A model generated the notes under the pieces. The model saw nothing but the letters and a program-made list of their open reading frames with translations. It was not told where the DNA came from and ran no database searches. A stretch of 63,099 nt of DNA, counting the filler, from Reclinomonas americana ATCC 50394 (lineage: Eukaryota), in assembly GCA_048213135.1 (NCBI GenBank). It is 4 parts of 3 records of this genome, joined end to end, with 100 filler letters (N's around TTAATTAATTAA, not from the genome) between each part and the next. Parts side by side here need not be neighbours in the genome. Positions count along the whole stretch, not along the records: positions 57,958 to 63,099 come from PS015236.1; 3 more parts are not named here. One strand, given 5' to 3'. The position numbers and the translations under genes are program-made. Each line of letters starts with the position of its first letter. Positions within the stretch are counted from its first letter, which is position 1. Below, in pieces: positions 4,001 to 63,099 of the stretch.

Positions 4001-7000
4001 CGGACGAGAACGATGGAGCTGCGCGCGGAACGTAAGCAAATTAGCATCAAAATAAGCAACATGAACAACAGAAACAGTCAACTGACCAGTCACGGAGACC
4101 GTGAATCGCACCGCCACTCGAATCCACGGCACACCCGCCGCATATCTGACAGGAGACAGGCGTCAGCTGCTGACACACAAGCACCTCACTGGCGTTCTCT
4201 GCATCGCAATGGCTTCCACGCATTCACTCATTCGGCTAACTTCCTTCTTCGACGATGCAAGTCATGCCCTCTGAACACTAGCTTCCATGAATCACTGTAC
4301 TACTGCTTGCCCACCGTGTGACCCGCGAGTGTGCGTCTCATCTGCCCTCACCCTCCCTCTCTTTGCCCTCCTTCTGCTTCGAGGATGCGAGTCTCACTTG
4401 TGTTATCGCAATGGCCCCCTTGAATGTGTGTCTGTCTTTCTTCTGCCCTCACTCGCGCTTGTCCTCCTTCTCTTCGTCGACGATGAGAGTCACACTTGTA
4501 ATTTCACCGCCAAGGCATCCCCTGGAACACCTCTCTCTCTCTCTTCCGCCCTCACTCCCTCCCTCCCTCCCTTCGCACTCACCTCAAGCACACCATGAGC
4601 GTCCGGTACACCGGAAACGCACCAGCACGAACCTCCGACGGCGAGAACACCACCGTCGTGGACGTGGCTGGCAGTCCACCGCTCGGACTACTGGACAGCA
4701 CAGAAGTCGAAAAGCCGCCAAGCGCAGTGCCAACCGCCGCGCTATTCGTGTCGCAGTTGAGCAGGTTGGCGTCGACCAGCTTGCCTTCCACACCATCGAC
4801 GGGAACCCCGAATCCAACGAGCGTCACCACTGTGGTCTCCACGTTGCTCAGCACGGTCGGCGAGATGCTGTTCACTTGTGGCACTGTACAAGATACTCGT
4901 CACGTCAGGCGCATGGAGCGACACGAGCACGATCCAGCACCGGCACCACGCAACAAGTGTTGTCCAAGCGAATGCCCGTTCCACCGACGAGGAACCGATC
5001 CTCCACATTGTCAAACGAGCGACTGCGAGAGAGCAAGTGAGACGTCTCTTGTCTGCGCCCAGCATCACAACACTACCCAGCGGCAACTCAGCGCACCGCA
5101 GACAGGCAAAGAACACAGTGTCGGTCGTGACAGATGAGCTGGCAGCCAGTGACCACGAAACCGGCACCGTGGCAGTCTTGCCATCGGCGGACACAAGCAC
5201 GCGACTATTGTCGGGCACCAACTCGGAGACACCAAGTGGCGGCTGGAGTTGCGCACTGCAGTTGCTCGGATTGCGAGTAAAGGAGAAGGTGTCTGGCGAG
5301 CAGAGAATAGTGGAAAACAAGTGAGCCAGAGACAATCACTTTGCACAATGAAACGAGAATGGGAAAAAGCGCACCAGTGGAGAGCAACTGGTTACCGCGA
5401 ATGGTGACTAACGTGGTGCCGTAAACAACGGCAGTAGATGGACTTGTTGTTGTCGCGGAAGCTGTAAAGGCGATGAGAACCAAGTCACAAGCGGCAGCGA
5501 GCGAGCAATAATGTGTTACCGGAGCAGGTGGTCCAGAAGTAGACTGCAAGACACACAGGCCAGGTGGAGAAAGATGTTGTTGAACTATTGATCGTCAATG
5601 TGCCAACTCGGAGTACTGCCCGAAGGTACAACGCAGTGGAAGGTGGAAGCATGTCAAGCTTAAATCGGCCAGTAATGTCGACACTGCCGCTAAGAGAAGC
5701 GGGAAAAGGAGCAGAACCAAGAATGACAGAGAAGTCTGGTTGGTCGGACCATTCGACCGTGCACGTCACAAAACCGGGGGATGAGCCCATTGTATTCACT
5801 GTCACGTCGAAATACGCCACAGTTGACCGAACGAGAGCAGTGACAATTGACTGAACCACCGGCGGAGGAAGTGTCGTGAATGACTGCACAGAGCTGTATT
5901 GCACGGGAGCACCGCCACTTGTCGTCGCCACCACACGGAAATAGTACGCCGTGTTCGGCGTCAGCCCACTCACACCCACTGACACTGGCGTATCCGTCGA
6001 TGTGCTGACTGTGGCAGGCATCACGCCAGGCGCACTCACCACACCGCTGCTGAATGTCATTGAGGTCGAGTGCTCGATCGATACTGTCACCACCGGACCG
6101 TTCTGCGCATTCACCGTGCCACTCAACGTTGCCGATACTGCACTCGTCACCACAGCTGCATTGCTGACTGCCGTCGCCAGCTTGAACGTTGTGAATGACT
6201 GCACCGTACTATACTGCACGGGCGCACCACCGCTCGTTGTCGCCACCACACGGAAATAGTACGTGGTGTTCGGCGTCAGCCCACTCGCGTCGACAGTTAC
6301 TGGCGTATCGGTCGATGCACTGACCGTGGCAGGCATCACGCCAGGCGCACTCACAACGCCGCTACTAAACGCCATTGAGGTCGAGTACTCAATCGATACC
6401 GTCACCACCGGACCGTTCTGCGCATTCACCGTGCCACTCAGCGTTGCCGACACTGCACTCGTTACCACAGGTGCATTGCTCGCCGTAGTTGGCAACAGTG
6501 GCGTGGTGAACGGTTGCACAGAGCTGTACTGAACAGGCGCACCGCCACTCGTCGTCGCCACCACACGGAAATAGTACGTCGTGTTCGGCGTCAGCCCACT
6601 CACATTCACAGTCACTGGCGTATCCGTCGACGCACTGACTGTGGCAGGCATCACACCAGGTGCACTCACGACACCGATGCTGAAAGTCATTGACGTAGAG
6701 TACTCGATTGATACCGTCACCAATGGACCATTCTGCGCATTCACCGTGCCACTCAACGTTGCCGACACTGCACTCGTTACCACAGCCGCATTGCTGAATG
6801 TAGTCGCCAATTTGAACGTCGTGAACGGCTGCACAGAGCTGTACTGAACAGGAGCACCGCCACTTGTTGTCGCAGCAACACGGAAATAGTATGCCGTGTT
6901 AGGCGTCAGCCCACTCACACTCACAGTTACTGGCGTATCGGTCGACGCACTCACAGTGGCAGGCATCACGCCAGGCGCACTCACCACGCTACTGCTGAAC

Positions 7001-10000
7001 GTCATTGACGTCGAGTACTCAATCGATACCGTCACCGCTGGTCCATTTTGTGCATTCACCGTGCCAATCAACGTCGCCGATACTGCACTCGTTACCACAG
7101 CTGCATTGCTGATTGCTGTTGCAAGTTTAAATGTCGTGAACGACTGGCCAGAGCTATATTGCACGGGAGCACCGCCACTTGTTGTCGCAGCAACACGGAA
7201 ATAGTATGCCGTGTTAGGCGTCAGCCCACTCACATTCACTGACACTGGCGTATCCGTCGATGTGCTGACTGTGGCAGGCATCACGCCAGGTGCACTCAAC
7301 ACGCCGCTGCTGAACGTCATCGATGTCGAGTACTCGATCGATACCGTCACCACCGGACCGTTCTGCGCATTCACTGCGCCACTCAGCGTCGCCGATACTG
7401 CACTCGCCACCACAGCTGCATTGGTGACTGCCGTCGCCAGCTTGAACGTCGTGAACGGCTGCACAGAGCTGTATTGCACGGGAGCACCGCCACTTGTTGT
7501 CGCCACCACACGGAAATAGTACGTGGTGTTCGGCGTCAATGACGCAACGTCGACAGTCACTGGCGTGTCGGTCGACGCACTGACAGTTGCAGGCATCACG
7601 CCAGGCGCACTCACCACGCCGCTGCTGAACGTCATTGACGTCGAGTACTCAATCGATACCGTCACCACCGGACCATTCTGCGCATTCACCGTGCCACTCA
7701 ACGTTGCCGACACTGCACTCGTTACCACAGGTGCATTGCTCGCCGTAGTTGGCAACAGTGGTGTGGTGAACGGTAGCACAGAGCTGTACTGAACAGGCGC
7801 ACCACCGCTCGTCGTCGCCACCACACGGAAATAGTACGCCGTGTTCGGCGTCAGCCCACTCACATTCACAATTACTGGCGTGTCGGTCGACGCGCTGACT
7901 GTGGCAGGCATCACGCCAGGTGCACTCACCACGCCACTGCTGAACGTCATTGACGTCGAGTACTCGATCGATACCGTCACCGTCGGACCGTTCTGCGCAT
8001 TCACTGTGCCACTCAACGTTGCCAACACTGCACTCGTCACCACAGCCGCATTACTGACTGCCGTCGCCAGGTTGAACGTCGTGAATGACTGTACAGAACT
8101 GTACTGCACGGGAGCACCGCCGCTCGTTGTCGCCACCACACGGAAATAGTACACAGTGTTCGGCGTCAATGAAGCAACGTCGACAGTCACTGGCGTATCG
8201 GTCGACGCACTGACTGCGGCAGGCATCACGCCAGGCGCACTCACCACGCTACTGCTGAACGTCATCAACGTCGAGTACTCGATCGATACCGTCACCGTCG
8301 GACCGTTCTGCGCATTCACTGTGCCACTCAACGTTGCCGACACAGCACTCGTCACCACAGCCGCATTGCTGACTGTCGTCGCCAGTTTGAACGTCGTGAA
8401 CGACTGTACAGGGCTATATTGCACGGGAGCACCACCGCTCGTTGTCGCCACCACACGGAAATAGTACGTCGTGTTCGGCGTCAGCCCACTCGCGTCGACG
8501 GTTACTGGCGTGTCGGTCGACGCGCTGACTGTGGCAGGCATCACGCCAGTTGCACTCACCACGCTACTGCTGAATGTCATTGAAGTCGAGTACTCGATCG
8601 ATAGCGTCACCACCGGCCCATTCTGCGCATTCACCGTGCCACTCAGCGTCGCCGATACTGCACTCGTTACCACAGCTGCATCGCTCGCCGCAGTTGGCAA
8701 CAGCGGCGTGGTGAACGGCTGCACAGAGCTATACTGAACGGGAGCACCGCCACTCGTCGTCGCAACAACACGGAAGTAGTAAGCGGTATTCGCCGTCAAC
8801 GATGTAACATCGACAGTCACTGGCGTATCGGCTGATGTACTGACCGTCGCTGGCATCACGCCAGGTGCACTCACAACGCCGCTACTAAACGTCATTGAAG
8901 TCGAGTACTCGATCGATACCGTCACCGCTGGTCCATTCTGTGCATTCACCGTGCCACTCAACGTCGCCGACACAGCACTCGTTACCACAGCCGCATTGCT
9001 GACTGCCGTGGCCAACATGAACGTCATGAATGGTTGTACAGAGCTGTACTGCACGGGAGCACCGTCACTTGTCGTCGCCACCACACGGAAATAGTACGCA
9101 GTGTTCGGCGTCAGCCCACTCGCGTCGACAGTCACTGGAGTGTCGGTCGACGCACTAACTGTCGCTGGCATCACGCCAGGTGCACTCACGACGCCGCTGC
9201 TGAAAGTCATCGATGTCGAGTACTCGATCGATACCGTCACCGTCGGACCATTCTGCGCATTCACCGTGCCACTCAACGTCGCCGATACTGCACTCGTCAC
9301 CACAGCTGCATTGCTCGCCGTAGTTGGTAATCGTGGCGTTGCGAACGACTGGACACTGCCGTATTCAACAGAAGCACCACCGCCCGTGGTCGCTACGATG
9401 CGGAAATAGTACGAAGTGTTCGGCACCAACCCACTCACACCCACAGTCACTGGCGTATCGGTTGACGCACTCACAGTTGCAGGCATCACGCCAGGCGCAC
9501 TTACCACGCCGCTGCTGAAAGTCATTGAAGTCGAGTACTCGATCGATACCGTCACCACCGGACCGTTCTGCGCATTCACCGTGCCACTCAGCGTCGCCGA
9601 CACTGCACTCGTCACCGCAGCTGCATTGCTGACTGCCGTGGCCAGCATAAACGTCATGAATGACTGCACTGAACTGTACTGCACGGGTGCACCATTGCCG
9701 GTCGCCGCCACCACACGGAAATAGTACGCCGTGTTTGGCGTCAGCCCACTCACACTCACAGCCACTGGAGTATCCGTTGACGCACTGACGGTGACAGGCA
9801 TCACGCCAGGCGCACTCACCACGCCGCTGCTAAACGTCATCGATGTCGAGTACTCAATCGCCACCGAGGCCGCGGATCCATTCTGAGCATTCACGGTGCC
9901 ACTCAGCGTTGCCGACACTGCACTCGTCACCACCGCTGCATTACTTGTCGCGGTGGCAACTCGTGACGTGAGTAGTGGTTGAATGCTGCCCCTCAACTGA

Positions 10001-13000
10001 ACTCCACTGCCAACGTCACCCACAAGACGATAGTAATACGTGGTGTTTGGTGCCAGCCCGCTAACTGCTTTCCTCGCCGTCACAGTCGAGGAACCCATCA
10101 CAGCAGACGATGGAGCGTCAGCCCCAAGCGAAGTCACATTCGTCTCAACCAGCGGGTCCGTCGACATGTCAAACTGCACACTGACACTTGGTCCATTGTT
10201 GGCGTTGACGGAGCCATTCAGCACACCCGCCACCGCCGTGATGCCTGATGCCGCTTGCGTCACCAACGTCGGAGCTGTAAAGGATCACAGAAAAGGTCAT
10301 CAACAAGAATGAGCTGCCGTCATCCGGTGACTCATCCGACCACACATACCAACAAGTGTGGTGAATGATTTTTGATTGCCAGGTTGAAAACTCGATGCGT
10401 CAACAGACCGGAAATAATACGTAGTCTGAGGCAGCAACTGTGACACTGCAACCGATGTCCCTGTGAAACCCGAGCCCGTCGACGTGCTTGGCGACGCTGT
10501 CACCAAACATGCCGGCAGTGTCAGCGATCGCACCTTGGTTTGATCTGAGGACACGGGAAGAAGAAGGAAAACTCGTGAGAAATGAGTTTAACACACGTCA
10601 CACAAAGCAGTCCCCTTCATCCTTACCTCCGACAACCAGTACCCCACGCCACGGATCGTACGCAACACCCCGCTGCACGCCGCCTCACATTAGCGACAGG
10701 GAGGAACACCACCTTNNNNNNNNNNNNNNNNNNNNNNNNNNNNNNNNNNNNNNNNNNNNNNNNNNNNNNNNNNNNNNNNNNNNNNNNNNNNNNNNNNNNN
10801 NNNNNNNNNNNNNNNNNNNNNNNNNNNNNNNNNNNNNNNNNNNNNNNNNNNNNNNNNNNNNNNNNNNACTCACCGAATGGTGCAGTTGCCCGTGTCGGCC
10901 ACATACACAGCTTGTGCCGCGCTATCCACAGCCACACCCCGAGGAGTGCAGAAGCTCGCCGCCGTCGTCATTCCATCCGCGCTGCCACAGCTGGTCGATG
11001 CACCAGCTCCGGCCACCGTCGATAGCGTGTTTCCAGTGTCGAACTTTCGCAGTGTGTGGTTCAAGTTCTGTTGAAAACAGGTGAGCTTCACGAGCACTCT
11101 TTGTGTGCATCACGCTGCCTCCGCCACATACCGCAGCAACAAACACGGCGCCGGTCAGCGGATCCGCCTCAATGTCGGCCGGTCTGCAGGCAACAAAGTC
11201 AGTCTTCGCACAGACACGCAAGCGCAAATCCACTCGAACGTACTCATTCAGTCGCGCCGCTGTGCCCACGTCATCAACATTGCCTGCCATTCCCACAGAT
11301 CCAGCGACCACAGTGACAGTTGATCCTGAGATCAGTCGTAAAACGTGATTGCTGTATGAAAAATACATATGAGCTCGCAAGCTTCCACCCCCTGCACATT
11401 CCGAGTTCACTCACAGCGAGTCGGCCACCAACACATCGCCGTTTGCCAGCGGGGCAACACCCTACACCACACAAACGAGATCAGCAAAAAAGCTTCAGGC
11501 GTGGACGACAAATGACTGTGATCACCGCACCCATGCCGAGTTCATGGTCCCAGCCAGCGAGCTGGACGTGACCGTCGCACCAAACGCCGACGACGCCACG
11601 GCAAGCTCAAAGCCGTTGAACAGAAAGCCTCCTCGCGGGTCGACGGAGCCTTGCAGCTGCGCCGACACCGCAGTGATGCCGGTGGCGTCCAAGGTGGCGA
11701 AAGGGTAAGGGCCAACGGTAATTTGCGTCGAGCCGACAGTGGTGAACGTAGAGGCTCCAGTAAACTTGATGCACACAGCATACATGCCGAGCACGGTTAG
11801 GGTCGACGATGTTGCAGCCTTGAACACTAGAGAACGCGAGCCAGCAAAGCCGCCCAGACTCTGGAAGGCGAGACCAATGCCGCCACCAGCAGTAGCGCAC
11901 GAAGTTACACCGAGTTGCAACTCGACAATGTCGGTGCTTTGCAGCCCAGCTCCGGCAACAATGACGTTATCGTACGTACTCGACACCGAAATGGACGACG
12001 GTGAAAATCCAGTGGTTGTAGCCACTGGGCAGAGAGGAATGAGAGTCAGCGTGCTGCTGGTCAAGGGAATATCTAATGACAGGACGAACCTGCGTCGACC
12101 TCAGTGCTGCCGACTTTCACAAATGACCCCCCGCCACCGTACTGGATGCTGTGTGCGACAGAAGATCACAGTAAGCGTGGTGAGCCGCAACATCCTTTCC
12201 ATCTGCGCTCCACTCACTCACCACACAGACAACGATCCAGTTGGAACTGTGCTCGCCGACGATGCGCTGGCCGTCAGCGTCCACGCGCCAATCATCCCGC
12301 CAAGCGTGCCGGTTGTCAGCAAGCTCCCGCCTCCGCTTGCCGTACACGTCACACCTGCCTCCAAGCGCACCACATCGGTCGCTCGCAGTGCCAGACCTGA
12401 TATCGTTATGCTGGCGCCCGCAGTCTCCGCCGCAATCGACGACGGCGTGAACGACGTCGCATTGGCCACTGGGGGAAAAGAGAAATGAGGTATTCTATGA
12501 CAGCCACAAATCGTCCTTCATGGTACACACTCACCGCCAGTCAGCAACGAAGATGAAACCTTCACCCATGTCCCCGCATCCGCCGAAAACTCCACACACA
12601 CGGAAAATGTGTCGGGACTCGCACTCGGCAGAAGCAGACCCGACCCGCCCACAGTCGCCACCACCTCCGTCAGCATCGAGCTGCTCAGCGATGCCGCCGT
12701 GGTGGCCCCAGCTGCCGGCGTGCACGCAATGCCGGGTACAAATCGCACTTGTGAAACAGAAGTGCTAACCGCCAGACCGGCTCCTGTCACCGTCACCGTC
12801 ACACTCGCCACCTCAGCGGCGATCGACGAAGGAGAGAAGCTCGATACAGACGCTGTGCGTTGTCGCAAAAGGAGATTAGATCTTCGCCCGCGACGTCTCA
12901 CTCACGCCTGGTAGCAGCAGGAAATAAACGCAACGAATGTACATCAGAGTGGATCCGACCTTGAAATACGACCCCGAGGCAGAGAAGCGTACACACACGC

Positions 13001-28900: not shown

Positions 28901-31900
28901 GGACCCATCGCCACGCATGACCGAGTCGCAGCGTTCGTGGCTGCGCAATGTTCCCGGATTGGCTTCTTCAGCTGGGCCATCGTCGCGGGTGAATGCCGAC
29001 CGAAGCACATGGATCTCTTCTTCGTCACCGTCCCTCACATATCCTACAGCCATCGTCGTCGTCGTCGTCGTCTACAACCGCGCGTGGTCAGCGTCTCACT
29101 CTGCTGGACAAGGTCAGCGTGTCGAGTTTCTCGCGCATCTCGATCTCTCGCCCACCTCATTCGCCCCACAGCTCCCGCCAGAAATGGTCCAGGAGTGCCT
29201 GTCGTTCTTGGACCAGTACGAGTTCCAGCGTCTGTGGCGCACCTCGCAGCAGATCTGCTACTTTTTCGAGGAGGCCATGTACGAGTTTGTTATTCCAGCC
29301 GAGAACTGCCCGACCGAGGTCATGGCCCGGATCCTCGACACGCTGCCGAATCTGCACTGTCTGCGAAGTGCGTCCGCCGTGTGAGCATAAGCGACTTGCG
29401 ACGTTAGCGCTCACGAAGTGCAATTGCAGTGCGAGACATGCCGACTGGCGAGGGAGTGGAACTGGTGACAGTGGCCGCTCGTTTGCCACGACTCGAGCGT
29501 CTCGATCTTGTTCCGTGCTATCAATCCGCAACTCTTTTTTTTTATCACTTTGAGACTCACGTCTCCTCCACAGGGAGTGTTGGATGGATCTGAACTGCTT
29601 GACGCGCTCACGTCGCAAACTGATGATGCCTTCTGGCGGCGATTGCGCGAGCTCCGGCTGTGGGGTTCGCGTCTTCGTGTCTTCGTATCACCGCACATTG
29701 TGACCGATTTTCTCAACCGCCTCTCATCATCCAGGAATCTCTTCCGTTGACACAAACGACGTGCTGCGGTACTTGACGATTCGAGCGAGCCTGCTCGGCA
29801 AACTGGAGACATTCTCGCTCTTGGAGCCTCCAGAGGCATTTGGCGAGCGCCGCGAATGTGCGCCTTGGATCGAGTTCCTCCGCGCTGTGCCACATCTGCG
29901 TTCATTGCGTGTTGCGGTGTGTTCCTGTTCCCATTATGATGCCCACGGCACTCGCTGTGTTGTGACATCCACCGCTGCGCTGTGTGACCAGAATGTGCCC
30001 GGAGGTGCCGAGGATGATGAAGAAGGGTTGTACTCGTCGATGTTGTCGACCACGCTGTCACTGCCGAATCTGGAGGAGCTGCACTTGACACGTGAGTGCT
30101 GGTGGTCGTGCCATAGGAGGGAAAAATGTGGGGGGGCTGTCTCGTAATAATTGATGTTTTGTCGCAGGCTGGGATTTGTCATCGAAAATGGTTGACGATT
30201 TGTGCGATTACCTCTCAGTAGGCTGCAAGCTGACGACGCTTTCGATCGCGGTGCGTGATGTGGGCGATGGTGCATGGAGGAGATGGTGGGGGATTGATTA
30301 GAACAGCGATGCAGACTGCATTCTTGTTGTTTCCATATCTCACCTTCCTCCTGACCCATGCTGCAGTCTTGCTTGGTCACTCTCACTTTTCTTTTCCGTC
30401 TTCCCCTTCCGTCTTACCGCCTTCCATCTTCCTCCCTTTACGTCTTCCCTCCTTCCGTCTTCCCTCTTTCCGTCTTCCCTTCCGTCTTCCCTCCCTTCTA
30501 TCTTCTCACTTCCCCCTTCCCCCTTTCCCTCTTCCCCTTCCGTCCTCCTTCCTCCAGTCTTCCCTCCCCTTCCGTCTTCCTCCTTCTCCTCACCGTCCCT
30601 TCTCTTCCCCCCTTTCCCCCCATTCCCGCTTCCCGTCTCCCCTCTTCCGTCTTCTCCCCTTCTATCTTCCCCCTTCCGTCTTCCCCCTTCTGTCTTCCCC
30701 CTTCCGTCTTCCCCACTTCTGCCTCCCCCTTTCGTCTCTCTCTTTCCCCCTTTCTCCTCTTCTCACTCCCCCCTTCGTCTTCCCCCTTCCGTCTTCTCCC
30801 CTTCCGTCTTCCCCCCTTCTGTCTTCCTCCTTCCGTCACCCCCTTCTGTCTTTCCCCCTTCTGTCTTCCCCCCTTCCGTCTTCTCCCTTCCATCTTCTCC
30901 CTTTCCTCTGTCTCCCCTTTCCGTCTCTCTCTTTCCCCCTTTCTCCTCTTCTCACTTCCCCCCTTCGTCTTCCCCCTTCCGTTTTCTCTCTTCTGTCTTC
31001 TCCCTTCCCCCTTCTCCCCTCCCCCTTCTCCCCTTCCCTCTTTTCCCGCTTCTCCCCCTTCCCCCCATTTCCGTCTTTTCCCCTTGTGACTTCTTCCTTC
31101 CGTCCTCCCCTTCTGTCTTCTCCCCTTCTGTCTTCCCCCCATTCCGTCTTTCCCCCTTCGCCCTTTCCCCCCTCTCCCCCTTTCCCCTCCCCTTCCCCCT
31201 TTCTTCCTTTNNNNNNNNNNNNNNNNNNNNNNNNNNNNNNNNNNNNNNNNNNNNNNNNNNNNNNNNNNNNNNNNNNNNNNNNNNNNNNNNNNNNNNNNNN
31301 NNNNNNNNNNNNNNNNNNNNNNNNNNNNNNNNNNNNNNNNNNNNNNNNNNNNNNNNNNNNNNNNNNNNNNNNNNNNNNNNNNNNNNNNNNNNNNNNNNNN
31401 NNNNNNNNNNNNNNNNNNNNNNNNNNNNNNNNNNNNNNNNNNNNNNNNNNNNNNTCCCCTTTTTGCAGCCATTCCCGGTCGACGGCGCCGAGCTCCTCGT
31501 CGATGCCATTCACCACTGCGATACACTCCGCTCGCTCTACGTCGCCGTCGACTTGGACACCTCGTGGCCGCAGTCGCTAGCCAATGTGGTGGCCACGCAC
31601 CCAAGCATCACCAAGTTCACCGTGGAGGGCGGCGAGATCTCGTTCGATGTCCTGAAGCGCCTGCTGACCGCCCCTCGACTGGAGAAGCTCACCTTGGCCT
31701 CTGTTGACAGTTGCGAGTGCAGCGTGAACAACGTGTGCTTGCTGATACTCATTTGCCGATCCCACCCCCCTCACCTAGCTCACGACGCGTTTTCCGCGCG
31801 GGATCGAAAGTTGTGTGTGTACTGCACTCGTTTTGTTTCTCTTGATCATATATTCTCACATGTGGGTGTGTGATTACGGCAGTCGTCAATTTTTGCTCCC

Positions 31901-35440: not shown

Positions 35441-35624
35441 GATATGTGAGACCTTTTTCTCTTTTTTTCGCGTTCTCCCTCGTGGATTGTGAAGGTAAAA
35501 CGCAGTTGGGATGGAGTCTGGCAGGGTGTACGTGCTCCCTTCTGGCTACACCAGGATCACCTCTCACAGCGTCGACAAGGCGTCCGCGTCCTGTCATCTT
35601 TCTATTCCACTTGCGCGCACACAC

Positions 35625-36722
35625 ATGTCTCTCGCTCCTTCTCGGCCCTCTCTCCTCCCTTTCAAACCTCTGCTTGGGCACACAAATATAGTGATGTCCG
35701 TCACCGTCACTCCCGATGGCCGACACATCATCAGTGGGAGTTATGACAAGACCGTGCGTGTGTGGTTGCTGGCAAGAGGTGAGGAAGTGCGACGTTTGGA
35801 GGGCCACGCAGCGATGGTGGAATCTGTCGCCGTCACTCCTGACGGGAAGCACATCGTGAGCTGCTGCCGCGACTCAGCCATTGTGTGGTCGCTGGAGAGC
35901 GGAGAAGAGGTGCGACGATTGGAGGGACACACTGGTTGGGCGTGGTCCGTTGCCTTCACGCCCGACGGTCAACACGTTATCAGTGGAGGCAGTGACAAGA
36001 CTGTGCGTGTGTGGTCTTTGGCAAGTGGAGAAGAGGTGCGACGACTGGAGGGGCACACTGAATGGGTGAGGTCTGTCGCCGTCACTCCCACTGGTGAGTT
36101 CATTGTGAGTGGTAGCAATGATCGCACTGTACGAGTGTGGTCACTCGCGAGTGGCGAGGAGGTGCGACGATTGGAGATGCACAATGCAGTGGTGACGGTT
36201 GTTGTCACTCCCGATGGTGAGCACATTCTCGGTGGCAGTAGGGGAATTGTGCGAATGTGGTCACTGGCGAGCGGCGAGGAGGTACGAGAGCTGAAATTAC
36301 ACAGTGCATGGGTGCACGTGACATCACTTGCCATCACTCCTGACGAGCGGCACGTTGTGAGTGCGAGTTGGGATACCACAGTGCGAGTGTGGTCACTGGC
36401 GAGTGGAGAAGAAGTGCGACGGATGGAGGGGCACACCAGCCAGGTGTGGTGTGTCGCTGTCACTCCCGATGGTGAGCACGTTGTGAGTGGCGGCAAGGAC
36501 AACGCCGTGCGAGTGTGGTCCACTCCGTGCGGTCTCGCGCGCGAAGAGCTCCACACAGCGTTAGCTGTGATGTGCGCTGTTCAGGAGATGCAGCTGGCTG
36601 CTGACGACGAAGGTGACTCTCGATGCCTGCCAGAGATGGTGCTGCGCTGCTTCATTGTCGAGGATGCCGAGGTCATCGTGTATCGGCGCAGCGTAGACCC
36701 ATGGCCAGAGTCGCATTTGTGA
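35625..36722 (+). CDS. WD40 array copy 1: intronless 7-blade WD40 + conserved C-terminal tail (365 aa)
   Basis: MSLAPSRPS start, seven GH..V.SVAVTPDG..IVSG..D.TVRVWSL repeats, tail EEL..A..AMCAVQEMQL...CLPEMVLRCFIVE. Confidence 0.92.
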   Translation: MSLAPSRPSLLPFKPLLGHTNIVMSVTVTPDGRHIISGSYDKTVRVWLLARGEEVRRLEGHAAMVESVAVTPDGKHIVSCCRDSAIVWSLESGEEVRRLEGHTGWAWSVAFTPDGQHVISGGSDKTVRVWSLASGEEVRRLEGHTEWVRSVAVTPTGEFIVSGSNDRTVRVWSLASGEEVRRLEMHNAVVTVVVTPDGEHILGGSRGIVRMWSLASGEEVRELKLHSAWVHVTSLAITPDERHVVSASWDTTVRVWSLASGEEVRRMEGHTSQVWCVAVTPDGEHVVSGGKDNAVRVWSTPCGLAREELHTALAVMCAVQEMQLAADDEGDSRCLPEMVLRCFIVEDAEVIVYRRSVDPWPESHL

Positions 36723-36914
36723 ATAGTGAGTGAGTGTCTTGATTCTTTCTTTTTGTTCTCTCGTGGTGGTTTGTCAAGTAAAATGCAGTTGTGAAGGAGT
36801 CTGGCAGGATGCATGTTCCCTTCTGGCAGCTTTGCTCACAGCTTCGACAAGCGTCCGTGTCCCATAAAATCACCTTCGTTTTATTTCCACTTGCACGCCC
36901 TCACACCGTTCACC
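36723..36914 (+). promoter_or_regulatory. Conserved intergenic spacer of the WD40 array (candidate 3'-end/promoter signals), repeated between copies
   Basis: Motifs TTGTCAAGTAAAAATGCAG.TGTGAAGGAGTCTGGCAG and CTCACAGCGTCGACA...GTGTCCC recur in the ~190-240 nt spacers. Function is inferred from position only. Confidence 0.45.
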
Positions 36915-52180: not shown

Positions 52181-55100
52181 TTGATGGTTGTGATGGTGCT
52201 CTGTGGTGCGACGTGTGAGCACAACTGTGCGGTCTTGTGATCTCTCTGAGCCTTTGTCTTGCTCCCCCAAACTCTCGTTTTACATCACTCTTCCGTGCTC
52301 CCATATTACCCTTCTAATCTCCGTTCTTTTCTCTCGTTATATCTTTCTCCACTCCTTCCCCTTTCTTTCCTCTGTTCATTCTCCCAGTTTTCTCGATCTC
52401 TTCCCCTTCCATCTTTCCCCACTTCTTCCCTCCTTGCTCCCATATTTCCCATCTGATCTCCATTGTTTTCCCTCGTCACGTCTTCCTCCACTCCTTCTCC
52501 TTCCCCTTTCTTTTCGCTATCCATTCTTCCAGTCTTCTAGATCTCTTCCCCTTTCATCTTCTCCTATACCACTTCTTCCCTCCTTGCTCCCATATTTCCC
52601 ATCTGATCTCCATTGTTTTCCCTCGTCACGTCTTTCTCCACTCCTTCTCTTTCCCCTCTCTTTCCTCTATCCATTCTTCCAGTCTTCTAGATCTCTTCCC
52701 CTTTCATCTTCTCCTATACCGCTTCTTCACAACTTATTCTCCACTGCTCTCCAGTCCCCTTTACTCACCCCCACCTCGCCCTACACCCTTTGCCTTTCCC
52801 TTTCCTTTTCGCCTTCCCCTTCTCCTTCCTCTCCCATTCCTTGCCATTCTCCACAATTTTTTCTTCCGACTCCCACCCCTATCAATATCTCAATATCTCA
52901 ATATTACTTCGAAATCTTTTCTTCCCCCTCCTTCTCTATCTCCACCCTTCCCCTTGATACCCCTTCCCCCTTTCCCCTTTAACCCTTCCGCCCTTTGCCC
53001 CACTACCCACGCAACATCAATAATCTTGGAGACAGTGAGGGTGTGCGGAATGCTAATGGTCGCGCCATTGGCCGGCGCAGTGGCGGTGAAAAGGCCGACC
53101 TTGACGAAGGGTGACAGTGGTCCGAATTGCGTCCACGTCTGCACCGACATGGGTGCGGAGATCACCGTGCTGTTGGCGTTGAGGTCGGTGATGGTGGTGA
53201 GAGCGCCGACAGTGAGGAGGGCGCTGCCGCCATTCAAGGTGATGGCCGAGGTGCCGGAAACCTCGAGGAAGGCACTGCCGCCGCGTCCGGTGGTGGCCAG
53301 AGTCGAGGCGCCGCCCGTCAGCACGAAATTGCCACCGACAATCGAGGAACTTGTGTTGGCGTTCTGGCCGCGAATCGTCGTGGCAGAGCTGTTGGGCAGT
53401 GACACGGTCACGTCGCCGCTCGTGCTGGGATCGCCCACTTGCAGCGTGTTCGACTGCGACCACACACTGGTGCTGACGGTGGAGGAACCGATTTGCACGG
53501 CGCTGTTGGCGGCGGCACTGCCGACGAACAGCGTGCCCGACGTGGACGTGCCGGTGCCGGCATCGAGATACAAGGAGCGGCCAGTGTTGCTCGAGGAGAT
53601 GCCAGCTTGCACCTGCAACGTGGCCCAGTTGGTGGTGGCCGCGGTGGCGACCACGCTGCACGAGGAGCCGTCGATGAACGACAGATTCGTGTTGCTGAGG
53701 GTCACTCCGCTTTGCACATAAATGGCTCCGCTGCGTGCGTTACAACAGGTGAGAGACGGGTATCGAAAGGTAGAAGACGTGCGTAAGGCAGGGGGAACGT
53801 ACGTGGGACTGCCGAGGAGAATGTTGAGCGATTGCGACTCGAGTCCCACCGACACTGAGCCCGACATGCCGGTGGCATCTTGCGCGCCACCGTCCACGTA
53901 CAAATCGGCACCAATCGTCCCCGTCTGCGTGGTGGTGCAAGATGAGGGGCGGAACGAGAGGAGCAAAGAACACACAGACTGAGTACGGCGCAACAGTGCC
54001 CGCCGTGATCGTCACGGCCGAGGGTGTACCGGAGACAGTGGCGCCCGTGATGGTGTACAGATCGGTGACCGAGTTGCCGAGCTGGAACGTGGTGTCCACC
54101 TGCGAGGTGGTGGTGCTGAGGTTGAGGGTGGTGGCGGTTATAGCCACTGCAGTGCTGGCCGTCAGGGTGGAGCTGGCCGATGTCAGTGAGAAAGTGTTGC
54201 CGCGCACTGTCAGCGAGCCAATTGCGTTCAGGTTCAGCGCCGAGCCGCCAATCAGGTAACCGCCAGCTGCATCCACACGCAGAAGCACATGGGGTTAGTG
54301 TCCTTGACAGACTAATAAGGAGGTGCACAGTGACACACCAGTGACGGTCGAGTTGAATGCAGTGGCCGCCTGCACCGTGGCCGTGGCCGATGCCTGCAGA
54401 TCGGCCGTACCAACCAGCAGGCTGCTGGTGGCCGAGTTCACTTGCACATCGTTGGCCAGCGCCTGCAGTCGCACCTCCGCCGACGAGGCCAGCGTCACGT
54501 GTCGCTGCGCAGTGACCGTGGTCGTCGGTGCTGACACGAGAATTGACGGGTTGGCGGCGGCCATGGCGTTGAGGTCGGTGATGCGCACGGGCCCAGCCGA
54601 TACGATGGACAGGTCGCGAGTGGCCGGAAACGACACAGAGGGCGATGTGATCGACACCAGTGCCGAGGTGCCGCCGACCGCAGTCACCGACAAGTTGGTG
54701 CCGGCGGTGATGGTGACATTGGCCGAGGCCGTGGTCAACTGCATCGATTGCGGCACCGACACGCTCAGCGAGTTGGACGCGGTGAGCGTTACGCCGGCCG
54801 CGTCGCTGCGGATGGTCGCGGTCTGCGAGGCGGGTGCCTGCACCTGGAACGTGGTGGCGGCGGTGAATGTCGGCGCCGCCATGGCGCTGCTAAAGTTGAC
54901 GAGCGGCGAGTTGAACTGCACGTCGCCGCCCGTGGCCGATATCAACACGGCCGTGGTGGCCGGAATGCCGCCGGAGACCATGCTGTTGCCCATGTTGATT
55001 CCGCGGTCGGTAATGGTCGCAGGAGTGATACCGGCGGCGGTATCGAGCGACGCCAGAGTCAACGAGGTGGAGCCGTTGATGGTGGCCGCCGCCGGTGCCT

Positions 55101-57856
55101 GCCACGTGATGAGCCGTGCAGTGCCGTTGAGTGCGGCCGATGCAGTGAGTGTGATGCTGGTTGTCGCCGTGGCGACTACATCAGTGACGGCGCGCACCAC
55201 CACACTGCCAGTGACGCCCGTCGCCGCAATCGTCGCTTGCGCGGCAGCAATGCTGAACGACTCTGTCGGCTGCAGCTGCACCGTGGCCGCACTGATGTTC
55301 GTGGCGGTCGCCGAGGCCAGCGTCACATTGCCGCCGGCACTGAGCGTCATGAGAGTGGCGGAGGCGAGTGATGCTGTCTGTGGACTGTCGACCGACACGC
55401 CTTGCCAGGCCCTGATGATGAGATACTGACAGTTGACACTGACGGTGCCGGAGGTGGCCGACGAGGAAAACGTGGCCGAGGGTACGCGCAGCGACAGCAA
55501 CGATCCGCCAGTAAGCGTAATGGTCTGGCCGGCCAGGGTCATCAGGTCGGCCGACAAGTTGATGCCAGCGGAGGTGCCGCTGATCGCTGTCGACGACGTG
55601 ACAGTCACCTTTGGCCGCAGCGGTGAGTGACAGCAGGCAAATACTAATGCAGACATGTACAAACGCACCTGGGGAGCGGAGAGCAGGGAGGGCGCGCCGG
55701 ACCACTCGACTGTCGGCGCTGTCATGGTGAGCGACATGGAGCCTTGGAGATTCACCGTCGGTGCAGTGATGCGCGTCTCGGTCGTCGAACTGAGGCTCAA
55801 AGAGGGTGTGGTGGCCGTGAAGGTGTCGGTGGCGTTGAACCAGAGCACGGTGCCGACAGTGGCGTCGATGCTGACCGGCGACGACAAGTCCAATCGCTGT
55901 CCGCCCTGCAGCGACACCGTGTCGGCCGCATTCAGCGACACGGTCGGCGCCGTAATGTCGACCGTCGGTGCATTCCAGGTCAGCGGACCACCGCCGGACA
56001 CCAGCAACGTGCCCACCGAGGTGGCGATGGTGGGCGCAGTGAATTGTGCCGCCTGTGACGTGTTGACAGCAAAGGTGCCGGATTGGAGGTTGACTTGCGA
56101 GGTCGCCGTTCCGATATTGATCGCCGAGCCCGCAATGCTCACCTGGCCGTTCAGTGCGGCGTTTCCGATTTGCACCTGATGTAGAGGAGAGTGTGTGAGA
56201 GACAGGGAGACGAAAAAAAGAGTCGGAGGAAGCAGACCAGTGGAGAATTGGTGCCAATGTTGAGCGGTGTTGTGCCGACCGTGTCACCGTCCACCTGCAA
56301 ATCGCCGCCGTGGAACGCCGCCGCAGCGCCCGTAACAGCTCGCCCCAGCAGATACATGGGGATGCCGTTGGCCATGGCAGAGGTCGAGTCACTGGTGCGA
56401 ATGGTGTACGAGGGGCCGGAGCCGCCGGCGAATGTAATGCCGCCTTGCATGTTGACGTTGGTGGGGTACATGTGGACCACGCCTCCACTTGAGCCGAGGG
56501 TGACGGTCTGTGCACGGGGGTGAGGGAGATGAGAAAAAGACGGAAAGGGACAGAGAGGGAGAGAGAGGGAGAGAGAGGGAGAGAGAGAGGGAGAGAGAGN
56601 NNNNNNNNNNNNNNNNNNNNNNNNNNNNNNNNNNNNNNNNNNNNNNNNNNNNNNNNNNNNNNNNNNNNNNNNNNNNNNNNNNNNNNNNNNNNNNNNNNNN
56701 NNNNNNNNNNNNNNNNNNNNNNNNNNNNNNNNNNNNNNNNNNNNNNNNNNNNNNNNNNNNNNNNNNNNNNNNNNNNNNNNNNNNNNNNNNNNNNNNNNNN
56801 NNNNNNNNNNNNNNNNNNNNNNNNNNNNNNNNNNNNNNNNNNNNNNNNNNNNNNNNNNNNNNNNNNNNNNNNNNNNNNNNNNNNNNNNNNNNNNNNNNNN
56901 NNNNNNNNNNNNNNNNNNNNNNNNNNNNNNNNNNNNNNNNNNNNNNNNNNNNNNNNNNNNNNNNNNNNNNNNNNNNNNNNNNNNNNNNNNNNNNNNNNNN
57001 NNNNNNNNNNNNNNNNNNNNNNNNNNNNNNNNNNNNNNNNNNNNNNNNNNNNNNNNNNNNNNNNNNNNNNNNNNNNNNNNNNNNNNNNNNNNNNNNNNNN
57101 NNNNNNNNNNNNNNNNNNNNNNNNNNNNNNNNNNNNNNNNNNNNNNNNNNNNNNNNNNNNNNNNNNNNNNNNNNNNNNNNNNNNNNNNNNNNNNNNNNNN
57201 NNNNNNNNNNNNNNNNNNNNNNNNNNNNNNGGAGCGAAAGAGAGGGAGAGAAAGAGAGTATGCGCGAAATGTGAAAACGGAGAGAGAGAGCGAGAGGGAT
57301 AAAATATGAGAGTGAGAAACAGGGATAGAGAGTAAGAGAAAGAGGCAGAGATAAACAGAGTGAGAATGGCAGAGTGAGAGCGAGAGAAACCGGGGTGACG
57401 AAACGTTAGTGGTTTGTGTGCCAATATTGACCACTCCCGGCAAGCCAGTGGCGCTGCTGCCTCCTTCAATGAAGAGATCGCCACCGCGTCCATTGCTGGT
57501 GCTCTGTCCACGCAGCGTGGTACTGAAGGCGCTGGAGCCCGTCGCCGGAGGTCGTTTCATGGTGAAGGGAGTGGTGGCCGATCCTGCACGAAACAGTCAG
57601 AGAATAGAAAGCGAGAGAGAGAGAGAGAGTCTCTCGTCCACGAGAAGAACAAACCGAGAACGATGCCGGACTCGGCCCGCGTCTCGCCGCCGAATGTCAC
57701 AAAACCAGTGGCGGGCGCAGTCGTGTTGCCAATGACATCGAAGCGCACGGCCGAGGCCAGTGTCGTTCCAATGTTGATGGTGCCGTCGACAGTGTCCACC
57801 ACCAGATTGCTGTCGTTGCTGGTCTGCAGCATGGTGTTGTTGCGCAAGAACATGGA
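52181..57856 (-). CDS. Large Thr/Ser/Ala/Gly/Val-rich beta-strand repeat protein, phage tail-fibre/spike-like (5' end truncated)
   Basis: Long minus-strand ORFs (626, 367 and 182 aa) separated by short GT-AG introns. Recurrent GGDLxxxGG and SITLTA-type strands. C-terminal TQFGPLSPFVKV...SIPHTLTVSKII. Confidence 0.75.
52419..52727. repeat. Intronic 150-bp direct tandem duplication
   Basis: CATATTTCCCATCTGATCTCC at 52441 and 52591. Confidence 0.9.
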
Positions 57857-58864: not shown

Positions 58865-60142
58865 ATGGACTCGATGGATCGCGACGTCGACGTCGTGATG
58901 GAAATCTCGCCCGTGCTCGTGCGCGCCTGTTTGTCTTCGTCGACACTGTCTCGCGCACCCGCCCTTGATCCCCGACGCGCCCACTGCGGCAGGTACAACG
59001 ACTCGAGTGAGCACAACCACGCGCGCATAGCAGGACGCGATATCCGACGTCGACTTTCACTCGCGCGCCAATGGGCGCCATGTGCGGGTGCGGCAGCGAG
59101 TCCGAGAACAAGGACACGCTGGCTCCCTTACAGCCGACACTTCCCTCTCCCACTCCTCCTCCTCCTCCTCTTCCTCCGACACCTCCACGGCGTCGCTCAG
59201 TTCGCTTTGCTCCGGGTGTCTTCATTGATCACGTGCACGATGGGCTGTTGATGGCCCGTCCCGACGACAACAGCCGGCGCAGACCCACACAACGATCGCC
59301 CAAGTCAGTCGATCATGACGAGGTTCATCTCGTCACCGACACGGACAATCGTGATGGAGACTTGCAACGCGCCATTCTCGAGTCGGTGCGTGCGTGCGTG
59401 CGTGCGTGTGTGCATATGAGTGAGCGAGACGCGCAGCGGTGAATTTTCCGCCATTGTTTAGGTGAAGGATGTCAGTCGACAACAAGCCGAGGTAGTCGAA
59501 CGGCAACGCGCAGCTGCCAAGGTCGGTTTCGCTGTTGTTCTGTTGTCGTTCCTCGCATGCTCGCTCGTTTTGATCATGTGGTGGCAGGCGCGTGTGCTGA
59601 AGCGGCTGGAGGCGCTGGGCGAGGTGGAGATTGCGACTGTGATCGATGGCAATTGCTTCTTTGATGCGGTGGCCAAGCAGCTGGCGTACCTCGATGTGGA
59701 GCACTTGGATATGGGCGGTGTGCGTGCGCGAGTGGTGCAGTGGATGCAGGCGAATCGGGCCACCAAGATCCACGTGGGCGACGGTCACATGTGCTCGTTG
59801 GAGGAGGCGGTGCAGCAATTCGGCTCCTCGGTGTCGTTTGACGAGTACACGCAGACCATGGCGTGTGATGGCGTGTGGGCCGACGGGGCGTGCGTGTGGG
59901 CCACATGCCACGTCTTCCACATCAATCTGGAAATTCTCTCGTCCACCGAAGACGAAGACTACTTCATTAACACGGTACGTGCGCTCTCTCCTCGTATTCC
60001 CCGATCGAGACACAAATGGACTCTCGCTTCAACTCCACCATGTGCGCAGTTTACCCCGGCGTCGCCAGCGTCCGTCACCGTCCCGTTAATCCACTATCTC
60101 GAGTGGCACTACAGTGCGCGCCGTCAAATCACTCCCATGTGA
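58865..60142 (+). CDS. OTU-family deubiquitinase with UIM-like motif
   Basis: Cys box IDGNCFFDAVAKQL, DGVWAD, His box EWHYS. UIM-like DGDLQRAILES. Start at 58865 is inferred from phase-compatible small exons. Confidence 0.88.
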
Positions 60143-60180
60143 ATCAGTGTAGCTTATCTTGTGTTGAGGTGTGTCCGCCC

Positions 60181-63099
60181 TCAGAGCACGATCGCGGTGC
60201 TGCACGACACCCGACTGGCAATGACGGCCTCGACGACGGCCACGTCCACCTTGTTGCCTGCGCAGAGGTGGAAACGACTTGTCAGTCGCGCGGCGATCGA
60301 CCGCAGAAACCGGGGGGACACAAGAAAACGCAACGACTGATGTCCAGCTCCACCAGGGAGGTGTTTTGCAAGATATCAATCAGGGCCGCCGCCGTCAGTT
60401 CGCGTGCCTGGTACCGCGCAATCGCACCTGGGCGCACGTGGAGCATGCATATGAGAGCAATCGCCAGCACACTCAATCAGAGAGTGCAACAAATACCTTC
60501 CAAGATCAGGTGGCGGAGCGAGCGGTGCCGTTGCGTGGCGCGCAGAATGTCGTGCACAGCCACGACAGTTAGGGCGTTCCCTGCATGGGCGTGAGTGAGT
60601 GGAATGGGCGCAGCTAGATGTCACTCAGCTCGCACGCAACATGACAAGTCGAGCCGCTGCAGCGGTATTGGCGAATTCATGATGCGCACCAGCGACGCAC
60701 TACTCATCAATCCATTCCACTGCAGCGACAGCTCGGTAATGCTGGTGTTGTCGCACAGAGCCTCCTCGATGGCGTGCAGACCCTCATCCGTCATTTCGAC
60801 GCTGCTCAGCCGCAGTACGCGCACTATCGCAACACACCCGTCAATGCCGATATAGAGCAGCACAGCAGTCAACGAAAAGAAGACATACCTGTTTGCATCT
60901 GCCGCAGGAATGGCACAAAGTGGACCAAGCCAGCGGGACACAATTCGTTGTCGGAGAGATCGAGTTCCGTGAGGCTCGGAAGCTTCGACAGTGTGCGTGC
61001 CACACTGAAGCAAATGCCAAAATCGTGACGCAGGTGGTTGGCGCGAATGTGCAACGTGTGCAGCTTTTTCGCCAGTCGCAAATTGTCCAGGGAGGCCAAG
61101 GCTGGAACCGACGCACCAAGGTTATTGTGCACCAGCCGAAGCGACTCGATTTGCTGCACGTCCGCCGGTGAAATCACAGCGGGAAACACTGCGTCGACAA
61201 CGGGCGGGTTAAGGAATCGTCATCCTGGGAGGAGGCACGCACGCACATGTACGCACCACCGGGAGACATCTCGGTGCTGTGCACTTCAATGTCCGCTATC
61301 CGAGATGACGAGGCGAGAATGGCCGGCACGAGTGCCGTGTGCAGTTCGTGCGGATACTCGGGCCACTCGTTCTCTGTCCGCATGCGGAATTGAACACAAA
61401 TGCGTGTGTCCGTGCATATCGACCGACATACCTGCAAACCGCACACGCTCAAGCTTGGGGAATCGGGTCATGATGACGGGCCAGGTCTGAGGGGCATGAA
61501 GCAGAGTGTGAGTGTCGGTCACTCAATCTTCCAAGCACGAACTGGAGACACGCTCACCTTTTGCAGGGACTCGTAATGGCCACGGAAAGTGTATTCGCGT
61601 GCAGACAGACAGCCGATTTCGAACCAGGCTGCTCAGCACAAGGCAATGAGAACCAATCCGTAAATGCACTGCACACTGTGAGCGCGTGCATTGGGGACTC
61701 ACCTCGACAAACATTCCATTGCTTCCAGTGATCATTCAAGTCAAAGTACATGAAAATGTAGTTCCACACCTGGCGTGCAACGTGTGAGGAACGTTGCACC
61801 ACAGCAGAGAGACATGAAAACGTGTGACATGCCTCAACGGGGAAGATGTCCATGCCCGGCGCCAGCGTCGAGTGAAAAATGCTGTCGGACTACATGCGAT
61901 ATGATCAGCAGCAAGTGGGTCACGTACACCGGCCGAAACAATGCACTCACCCGATCAACAGTGGGTAAGACGCCGGAGGCCAGTAGCATGTGGTGCCGGT
62001 CGGCTGCGCCAAGCACTGGTCGTCGTGGTCTGCGATCAGAACAATGAGCGTTTTCTTTCTCTTCCGAGGCCTGCAGAGTACGCACCTCAGCTGCGGATCA
62101 CCAGCATGTCGCTGCTGCTGTCCCTCTCGACCCGGTCGTTGACGCGGCAGTGGACGTGGCTGCCGCCACGCCAGTTGCGGCATCCAGTTGGCCGGCTGCG
62201 GCACCATGAGCGCCGGAAACCGCAAATCGGCTGCGACGTGACTACTCATGCCCTCCTGCACGGCGTGTGAGTGTTCGCAGTATTCGCGCATCTCAACCAC
62301 TGTCTCTCGCGTTCCACACCTCCAACACGTTCTGGCATATCGACTGAATGATGGTCGGCAACTCGGGCAGCAGCGACCACTCTTCCGCCTCCAGCACACC
62401 CTGTCGTGCACGCAGAGTGAGGAAATGACAAGCACGATGATCCAGCAGCACCCGGCCTACTCACGCAGAAAATGTCATCTGTGCGACTGCACGACGCTGT
62501 CAGACGGAATGATCAAGACAGAGAGAGAGAGAGAGCGGGGCAGACGCAACTATAGCGTTCCATTGCGATTTCGGAATAACATGGGTTTCGGCAGCATCAA
62601 GTGCGGCCGCTCGATCGGAAACTCGAGTGGAAACATCAGCAAGAGTTCGATGAATGGACCCTGCACAACGTTCAGCAACACACTGCCATTGGTTTGCGTG
62701 GCACCGCACGCACCAGATCGGGACGCCGCCAGTCGATTTGCGCGCACTCACGAATCCACGGTGCAAGAGCATACACACGTCGCGAGGCCGGCGGCTGTTC
62801 GGGTCCGCCCCAACTCCACCGAGTCTTGTACATGACAGAGGGCGGCAGCAGCGCACGAACAGTCCAGTGGGCGAAATTGGTCTTGCTGGGAATCACCCAG
62901 AAATGTTGCTGCCAGACAGCCGTGAGTGTCACTCCACTCGCACGTATATACACACGCATACTCTCACTCACTCACCGCCGGAAACACCCACTCCAGTGGG
63001 TCGCTGCTGCTCGGCAAGAAGCGCAGGAACTCGCCCACCAGACGGCACGCCAGTCGTCGCCAGGCTTCCTCGGCCGGCGGTTGCGGCCGTCCCTCATCT
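60181..63099 (-). CDS. UBC/E2-like + F-box + RNI-like LRR protein (5' end outside window)
   Basis: Spliced translation: RLVGEFLRFL...PSKTNFAHWTV...FIELLLMFPLEFPIERPHL...DDIFCGVLEAEEWSLLPELPTIIQSI (UBC-like). Then MDIFPVEVWNYIFMYFDLNDHWKQWNVCRAWFE (F-box). Then LTELDLSDNEL, ITELSLQWNGL, LQRLDLS (LRR). Stop at 60181. Confidence 0.8.

Follow-up and report, generated by a model that had tools for sequence, protein, structure and literature searches.

Does the genome of Reclinomonas americana ATCC 50394 (assembly GCA_048213135.1) encode a single protein in which a ubiquitin-conjugating (UBC) domain of the E2 type is followed by an F-box and leucine-rich repeats (LRRs)? A preliminary description of a 63,099-nucleotide stretch of this genome (hereafter the window; four parts of three records, joined by filler letters) proposed such a fusion near its right-hand end, in the part that comes from record PS015236.1, and read it as a substrate receptor carrying its own E2 or a module like that of the ubiquitin E2 variants (UEVs). 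The locus in question occupies the minus strand from 60181 to 63098 and is intron-rich. The motif strings, the cysteine-bearing micro-exon and the LRRs on which this description was built are present, whereas the F-box is not a clear one and the linker is not meaningful. As the best explanation overall we favour, with slightly better than even confidence, a locus whose 5' part consists of divergent UBC-like exons placed before LRR exons. What stays plausible in the interpretation is that an LRR protein is preceded by a divergent UBC-like domain; the F-box and the fusion were not confirmed. All that we say of the UBC-like part, the F-box-like part and their fusion comes from this one sequence.

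The gene model was built with a script from the minus-strand reading between base 63098 and the terminal stop codon, a TGA at 60181–60183. The reading frame is still open at base 63098, and the 5' end of the gene therefore lies beyond the window. The model has 16 exons, fully in frame, separated by 15 GT-AG introns of 53–77 nt each (Table 1). When 59000–63099 was translated from stop to stop, all five strings quoted in the preliminary description, which named no strand, were found in minus-strand translations within 62296–63098, spread across all three minus-strand frames. The commonest donor type in the gene is GTGAGT. Three of the 15 introns (62550, 60640 and 60334, minus strand) begin instead with the non-standard donor GTTGCG (GTTGCGT, not GTRNGT), and two of these three junctions fall in the LRR region, where they regenerate the LxxLxLxxN consensus of the repeats. 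Because these two junctions restore the consensus, the donor appears genuine and is no ad hoc device after exon 3, which suggests that GTTGCG is a tolerated non-standard donor in this organism. By codon measures, exons 1, 2, 3 and 5 look coding in the frames of the model: exon 1 has a codon adaptation index (CAI) of 0.671 and an in-frame GC content at third codon positions (GC3) of 0.78, exon 5 has 0.715 and 0.85, and the first 44 codons of exon 2 have a codon log-odds of +9.4. The last two bases of exon 3 belong to a TAG by which its frame would be closed, and an alternative donor at 62776 would make exon 2 shorter.

The downstream exons encode an LRR protein of the ribonuclease-inhibitor type. 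Among 14 unspliced open reading frame (ORF) pieces of the locus, Pfam recognised LRR families only. LRR_4 and LRR_1 passed their cut-offs (31.3 against 27 bits and 23.2 against 20.6 bits), whereas LRR_6, at 23.0 and 23.2 bits, came slightly below its cut-off of 23.4. In the spliced model the units are about 28 residues long and follow the LxxLxLxxN pattern. The LRRs that had been placed in 61600–63099 are thus borne out by Pfam, although they lie mostly beyond that range, down to 60181. A metagenome scan with the LRR exon found nine loci with generic LRR likeness only (30–61% over parts). No paralogue was found elsewhere in the window (best E 0.21), and an Rfam scan of the window returned no match.

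The first five exons, the 22-nt exon included, on balance appear to encode a very divergent domain of the UBC superfamily. We compared them with two profiles made from giant-virus sequences. The narrow profile started from a degenerate DNA pattern of the E2 active site, which picked out 119 loci; 116 ORFs of 120–400 residues were kept and 71 were left after clustering. For the broad profile the pattern was relaxed and further viral UBC ORFs were added; clustering at 55% identity left 23 sequences. When profile ORFs were checked against Pfam, six of six were UQ_con (62–174 bits), and the family search of one viral record was concordant. With hmmsearch, the three variants of the gene model that contain the micro-exon had one-sequence E-values of 0.0018 (A2), 0.0057 (A1) and 0.0062 (A3) against the narrow profile and of 1.1e-4, 3.0e-4 and 3.3e-4, respectively, against the broad one. 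This gain of about 20-fold with the more diverse profile is the behaviour expected of remote homology. The comparison of alignments with hhalign gave P-values of 0.004–0.005 (narrow) and 0.002 (broad, probability 13–14%) for A1–A3.

Ranking raw ORFs avoids any choice of splicing. When the raw ORFs of the window were scored with the narrow profile, those containing exons 2, 3 and 5 ranked 47, 2 and 34 out of 1408, and they aligned in consecutive order to profile positions 21–46, 48–78 and 92–110. Single exons compared with hhalign against UBC alignment A1 also fell on the right columns in the right order (exon 3, P 0.0095, columns 52–76; exon 5, P 0.072). In model A2, the broad hhalign alignment takes in helix 1 through helix 2 (107 columns), with exon 1 on the helix-1 columns. 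It pairs the FRN of exon 3 with the His-Pro-Asn (HPN) motif of E2s, and sets the Cys of the micro-exon and the Trp opposite the catalytic Cys and the Trp of E2s. The Cys stands eight positions before the conserved Trp, both in invariant columns. Only the Asn of HPN is retained, five extra residues separate it from the Cys, and a motif of the FP-x-x-[YF]-P-x-x-x-P type is present. The UBC hallmarks listed in the preliminary description are in this sense supported by hhalign, FRN at HPN and Cys at the catalytic Cys, but the support is moderate and lies below curated thresholds.

How far could such a match arise by chance? Shuffles of the N-terminal 184 residues never reached the 9.4 bits obtained with the broad profile (0/3000, best 7.3 bits), nor did shuffles reach the hhalign score of 26.8 (0/150, best 19.3). 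A statistic on colinear chains of raw ORFs was less favourable. We applied it to 41 decoys, namely the window in reverse and 40 copies from a fifth-order Markov model, and the chain was equalled by one decoy with the narrow profile and by two with the broad one, so that the chance at the level of the window is about 0.03–0.05.

The strongest competitor is a chance resemblance: the upstream exons would be genuinely coding, but for a domain with some other, or an unknown, fold, and the UBC motifs would have arisen by coincidence. We give this reading a substantial chance, short of even. Besides the decoys, much weighs against a UBC assignment. The hhalign probability is only 7–14% over both alignments, the exon 2 ORF falls to rank 265 of 1408 with the broad profile (exons 3 and 5 rank 1 and 15), and the Pfam-wide equivalent of these P-values is an E of about 3–7, which is at the level of noise. 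Two of 211 other real ORFs, from the collected loci and not strong UBC matches, score at least 6.7 bits with the broad profile; one of these two looks like an HPN-less relative of UBC. The profile match stops near position 110 of about 150, leaving the two C-terminal helices of the fold (helices 3 and 4) unmatched, and no downstream ORF in any frame matches this last third. General searches point the same way. Pfam found no UQ_con, UEV or RWD match for any unspliced exon piece; 12 pieces, the supposed UBC and F-box parts among them, had no family at E≤10. A sequence search of the PDB with exons 2, 3 and 5 returned no match at E≤10. Nor did HMMER find any among 1.84 billion representative proteins, the query being a frame-1 read-through of 61701–63098 with stops written as X, which covers exons 1, 3, 6 and 8. 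Word-based searches with exon 2 and with the long LRR exon found no relatives. The AlphaFold 2 (AF2) model of exon 2 by itself, with a predicted local distance difference test score (pLDDT) of 42.6, is too poor to inform on the fold. Against coincidence stand the better match with the more diverse profile, the shuffles, the fall of Cys, Asn and Trp on the columns of the catalytic site, and the colinearity of matches that come from three separate reading frames. We put a divergent UBC-like domain slightly ahead of even.

The same domain also depends on the structure of the gene between exons 2 and 5. Exon 3 in its model frame (frame A) has no single-intron in-frame join to exon 5. Seven paths with one internal exon connect them, and only the one through 62486–62465 has normal introns (64 and 64 nt); its exon is flanked by CAG on one side and GTGAGT on the other, and both donors used, GTTGCG and GTGAGT, occur elsewhere in the gene. 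The Cys-bearing 22-nt micro-exon of the preliminary description is hence the sole path with normal introns and known donors, but it is weak evidence in itself. Shuffles of the interval allow an in-frame path in 744/1000 cases and place a Cys directly before exon 5 in 104/1000, a further point against the UBC reading. The micro-exon is the best available structure and its evidential value is limited. The rival structure, model B, uses a GTGAGT donor of exon 2 at 62751, reads the exon 3 region in another frame and has no micro-exon, so that neither the UBC core motif nor the Cys is ever translated; in a variant of it the gene is decayed or misassembled. Model B is also fully in frame, its donor belongs to the commonest type in the gene, and the draft assembly has many N runs. 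Yet it needs introns of 91 and 150 nt where all others have 53–77 nt. In the exon 3 region, frame B has a GC3 of 0.31, typical of the off-frames of sure exons, against 0.64 in frame A, and a CAI of 0.479 against 0.539. Finally, the UBC signal disappears in it (no hmmsearch match with the narrow profile and an E of 0.17 with the broad one; hhalign P 0.16 and 0.39, respectively). We consider model B very improbable and retain the structure with the micro-exon.

If the upstream exons are UBC-like, the next question is whether they belong to the same polypeptide as the LRRs. The frame of exon 5 runs into a TGA unless an intron is spliced out, and two ATGs follow, at 62291 and, upstream of the F-box-like segment, at 61989, all of which speaks against a fusion. 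The best splice past the TGA (model A3) takes the donor GTGTGG, preceded by GAG, at 62319 and the acceptor at 62256, giving a 64-nt intron; we graded this donor weak to fair overall, and better than the alternatives GTGGTT and GTTGAG. Joining 62320 directly to 61889 would, by the coordinates, keep the frame but implies an intron of 430 nt, far outside the size range. The preliminary description had leaned on a phase-consistent linker. This has no evidential weight: when the linker region was dinucleotide-shuffled, 301/400 versions still offered an in-frame path free of stops with at most two GT-AG introns of 50–80 nt, and 366/400 did when three introns were allowed. Linker exon 6 has a codon log-odds of −11.8, another argument against the fusion, although its Pro/Gln/Arg composition accounts for part of this value; its CAI of 0.635, higher than in the other two frames, resembles that of sure exons. 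Between same-strand WD40 genes of the window, the distances from one stop to the following start are 192, 233 and 202 nt, so a separate downstream gene fits this genome. We lean towards two close genes on the same strand, a small UBC-like protein that ends at the TGA and an LRR protein that starts near the ATG at 61989. That the UBC-like and LRR parts form one polypeptide is possible, and somewhat doubtful in our eyes.

The F-box that the preliminary description called clear, in exon 8, is a motif seen by eye. Pfam finds no family at E≤10 in 61557–61889. Elsewhere in the window it does score an F-box, at 28902–29381 on the plus strand (23.8 bits, cut-off 20.5, residues 90–118 of the piece), and is thus able to detect F-boxes in this organism; that gene is followed by LRR-looking ORFs to about 31900. 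An F-box profile of our own, made from 27 viral segments (of 40 tried) that exceed the Pfam cut-off for F-box or F-box-like, matched the whole model with an E of 0.038 over eight residues at the exon 8/9 junction, which is not the motif described. With hhalign the same profile gave a P of 0.4 and a score of 8.4, under many of 200 shuffles (top 17.1). This negative is not a strong one because our profile is biased towards LPDE-type boxes. AF2 folds the 62 residues of exon 8 into three helices (18–32, 36–48 and 51–61; mean pLDDT 69). Foldseek found no match to this model in the PDB, and a wide VIA search gave generic helical matches with Z up to 4.3 and no F-box protein among the 50 matches listed. 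Two different registers of the exon are each partly F-box-like by eye, a pattern that chance resemblance tends to give. A functional F-box in exon 8 is therefore a tentative proposal, which we put at less than even.

Joined together, these elements make up the reading that the preliminary description had in view: a single polypeptide in which a disordered Pro/Gln/Arg linker connects a UBC-like domain to a functional F-box and LRRs, that is, a receptor of Skp1-cullin-F-box (SCF) ligases with its own E2- or UEV-like module. Models A1 and A3 are complete and in frame for it, the latter through the 64-nt intron described above, and the CAI of the linker exon agrees. The UBC-like part would otherwise end 12 residues past helix 2, without C-terminal helices, and an F-box and a UEV do occur in one chain in the Drosophila protein Morgue, as its published account has it (PMC3787007). 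On the other side are the F-box missed by Pfam, by our own profile and by hhalign, the shuffled linkers, the codon log-odds of the linker, and the TGA with the ATGs behind it. Relatives with the same architecture did not turn up either: among the best 120 of 499 longer proteins matched (E≤0.001), none had an F-box family, in a search with UBC alignment A1 that says little, as it was filled by Ubc4/5-type proteins, many of them odd gene-model fusions. We hold this reading to be unlikely.

What the UBC-like domain might do can be outlined for the explanation that we prefer, divergent UBC-like exons before LRR exons. The domain would run from helix 1 to helix 2, with Cys, Asn and Trp at the aligned positions of the active site and the His-Pro of HPN lost. 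It would have an insert of five residues between Asn and Cys, in the active-site loop, and one of about 38 residues after strand 2, and would lack the C-terminal helices. From the lost His-Pro, the loop insert and the missing helices we infer a conjugating enzyme that is weak or inactive. The domain may instead serve as a module that binds ubiquitin or an E2 partner in the manner of UEVs. Were it fused to the LRR part, and were the F-box functional, the protein would dock on Skp1 and hold the E2-variant module beside the substrate bound by the LRRs. A minimal but chargeable E2-like domain, tethered by the linker to a cryptic F-box and LRRs so that the SCF receptor brings its own ubiquitin donor, strikes us as highly improbable.

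Table 1. Features of the minus-strand locus at the right-hand end of the window, in order of transcription
Feature	Position	Strand	Content
Exon 1 (partial, open at window end)	62976–63098	-	Candidate UBC helix 1, contains RLVGEF; donor GTGAGT
Exon 2	62714–62908	-	Candidate strands 1–2 (PSKTNFAHW, PPSVMY) and insert of about 38 residues
Exon 3	62551–62660	-	Contains LLLMFPLEFPIERP ... FRN; donor GTTGCG
Micro-exon, 22 nt	62465–62486	-	Last codon is Cys
Exon 5	62320–62400	-	GVLEAEEWS ... LPTIIQSICQNVLE, candidate loop and helix 2; extends to 62301 in model A1
In-frame TGA	62293–62295	-	Closes the UBC-like frame unless spliced out; ATG at 62291 one base on
Exon 6 (putative linker)	62086–62255	-	Pro/Gln/Arg-rich
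Exon 7 (putative)	61951–62029	-	Contains ATG 61989, possible start of a separate LRR gene
Exon 8	61703–61889	-	F-box-like segment (FPVEACHTFSCL ... VARQVW)
Exons 9–12	61558–61628, 61432–61486, 61257–61373, 60889–61188	-	Ribonuclease-inhibitor-type LRRs
Exons 13–16	60641–60823, 60497–60580, 60335–60427, 60181–60257	-	Ribonuclease-inhibitor-type LRRs; stop 60181–60183

The candidate can be set beside several known kinds of protein. With canonical E2s (UQ_con, PF00179, including the viral Ubc4/5-like ones) it shares a weak colinear similarity from helix 1 to helix 2 and the Asn, Cys and Trp columns; it differs by FRN in place of HPN, by its two inserts, by the missing C-terminal helices and by scores below curated thresholds. 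UEVs such as Mms2/Uev1 and the UEV domain of Tsg101 have a UBC-like core without the canonical active site and its Cys, lack the C-terminal helices and bind ubiquitin non-covalently. The candidate would resemble them in having a UBC-like core without a canonical active site, but it keeps a Cys at the aligned position and has no Pfam UEV match. The part that follows recalls the FBXL-type SCF receptors, in which a short N-terminal helical segment also precedes LRRs, except that here the F-box is undetectable and the repeats are ribonuclease-inhibitor-type units of about 28 residues (LRR_6/LRR_4). Many proteins with repeats of this type have no F-box. UBC domains within large substrate-binding proteins are known from the E2/E3 hybrids UBE2O and BIRC6. 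These would be like the candidate, were it fused, in placing a UBC domain in a larger protein, and differ from it in their canonical active sites and unrelated partner domains. BIRC6 is termed an "E2-E3 chimera" in the source cited here for that term (PMC13623948).

The statement, made in the preliminary description, that in SCF the E2 and the F-box receptor are separate proteins was too strong, since Morgue joins an F-box and a UEV. In the published account of it, this protein has a zinc finger, an F-box and a C-terminal UEV with Gly in place of the active-site Cys, binds SkpA and K48-linked polyubiquitin, and is described as restricted to some invertebrates (PMC3787007). If the fusion and the F-box are real here, both proteins would combine a Skp1-binding F-box and an E2-variant domain. 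In Morgue the F-box comes before the UEV, a zinc finger is present, the active site has Gly and, as far as that account goes, there are no LRRs. In the candidate, with its putative F-box and fusion, the UBC-like domain would come first, the Cys is kept, LRRs are present and no zinc finger was seen in the model. A survey of domain architectures in the ubiquitin system reports that the accessory domains of E2s are exclusive and scarcely tie them to other nodes of the system, and that F-boxes are commonly paired with LRR, WD40 or Kelch domains, the combination with LRRs being ancient (PMC4327156). Our literature searches for fusions of F-box and UBC found none described besides Morgue among the papers listed, and two giant-virus records searched for an E2 joined to an F-box contained ordinary or other UBC ORFs only.

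Some other features of the window and of the viral records were recorded along the way. Next to the LRR gene, a plus-strand ORF of 226 residues (59462–60142) scores 38 bits for the Pfam OTU cysteine-protease domain, whose cut-off is 23.3. The two genes converge tail to tail with stop codons 38 nt apart, so that a deubiquitinase-type gene adjoins the ubiquitin-related candidate. A tandem array of at least seven single-exon WD40 genes lies on the plus strand at 35499–47376. The first of them scores 236.6 bits for WD40, and the genes share the N-terminus MSL[AT]PSR and a conserved start context, with 192–233 nt from stop to ATG where no gap intervenes. Two minus-strand ORFs of 1599 residues (5485–10284) and 662 residues (54295–56283) consist of Thr/Ser/Val/Ala-rich repeats of about 90 residues, and the shorter one has no Pfam family. 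The window as a whole contains many N runs and CA/GA microsatellites.

Among the giant-virus sequences, an ORF of about 185 residues recurs in eight contigs with 79–80% identity (L310:2932–3492 and L311:2932–3486, both on the plus strand, and L312–L317). By eye it is UBC-like without HPN and, immediately ahead of its stop, shows half of an LPDE-type F-box motif; Pfam gives it neither a UBC nor an F-box family. In viral record G001, a 567-residue ORF (L132:1402–3102, plus strand) has an N-terminal UQ_con domain (62 bits) followed by about 400 C-terminal residues without a family, and another, longer than 846 residues (the family search gives 1086; L131:931–3468, minus strand), has two UQ_con matches.

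At present the value of this locus is mostly cautionary. Splicing by hand readily produces in-frame "fusions", as it did in 75% of the shuffled linkers, and UBC and F-box calls made from short motifs need the support of a profile or of a fold. If the fusion were nonetheless true, it would add an E2-like-first, LRR-bearing protein to the very short list, represented by Morgue, of those uniting an E2-variant module with an SCF adaptor. The benefit to a receptor of having a ubiquitin-binding or ubiquitin-carrying module of its own could then be studied in a second, independent case.

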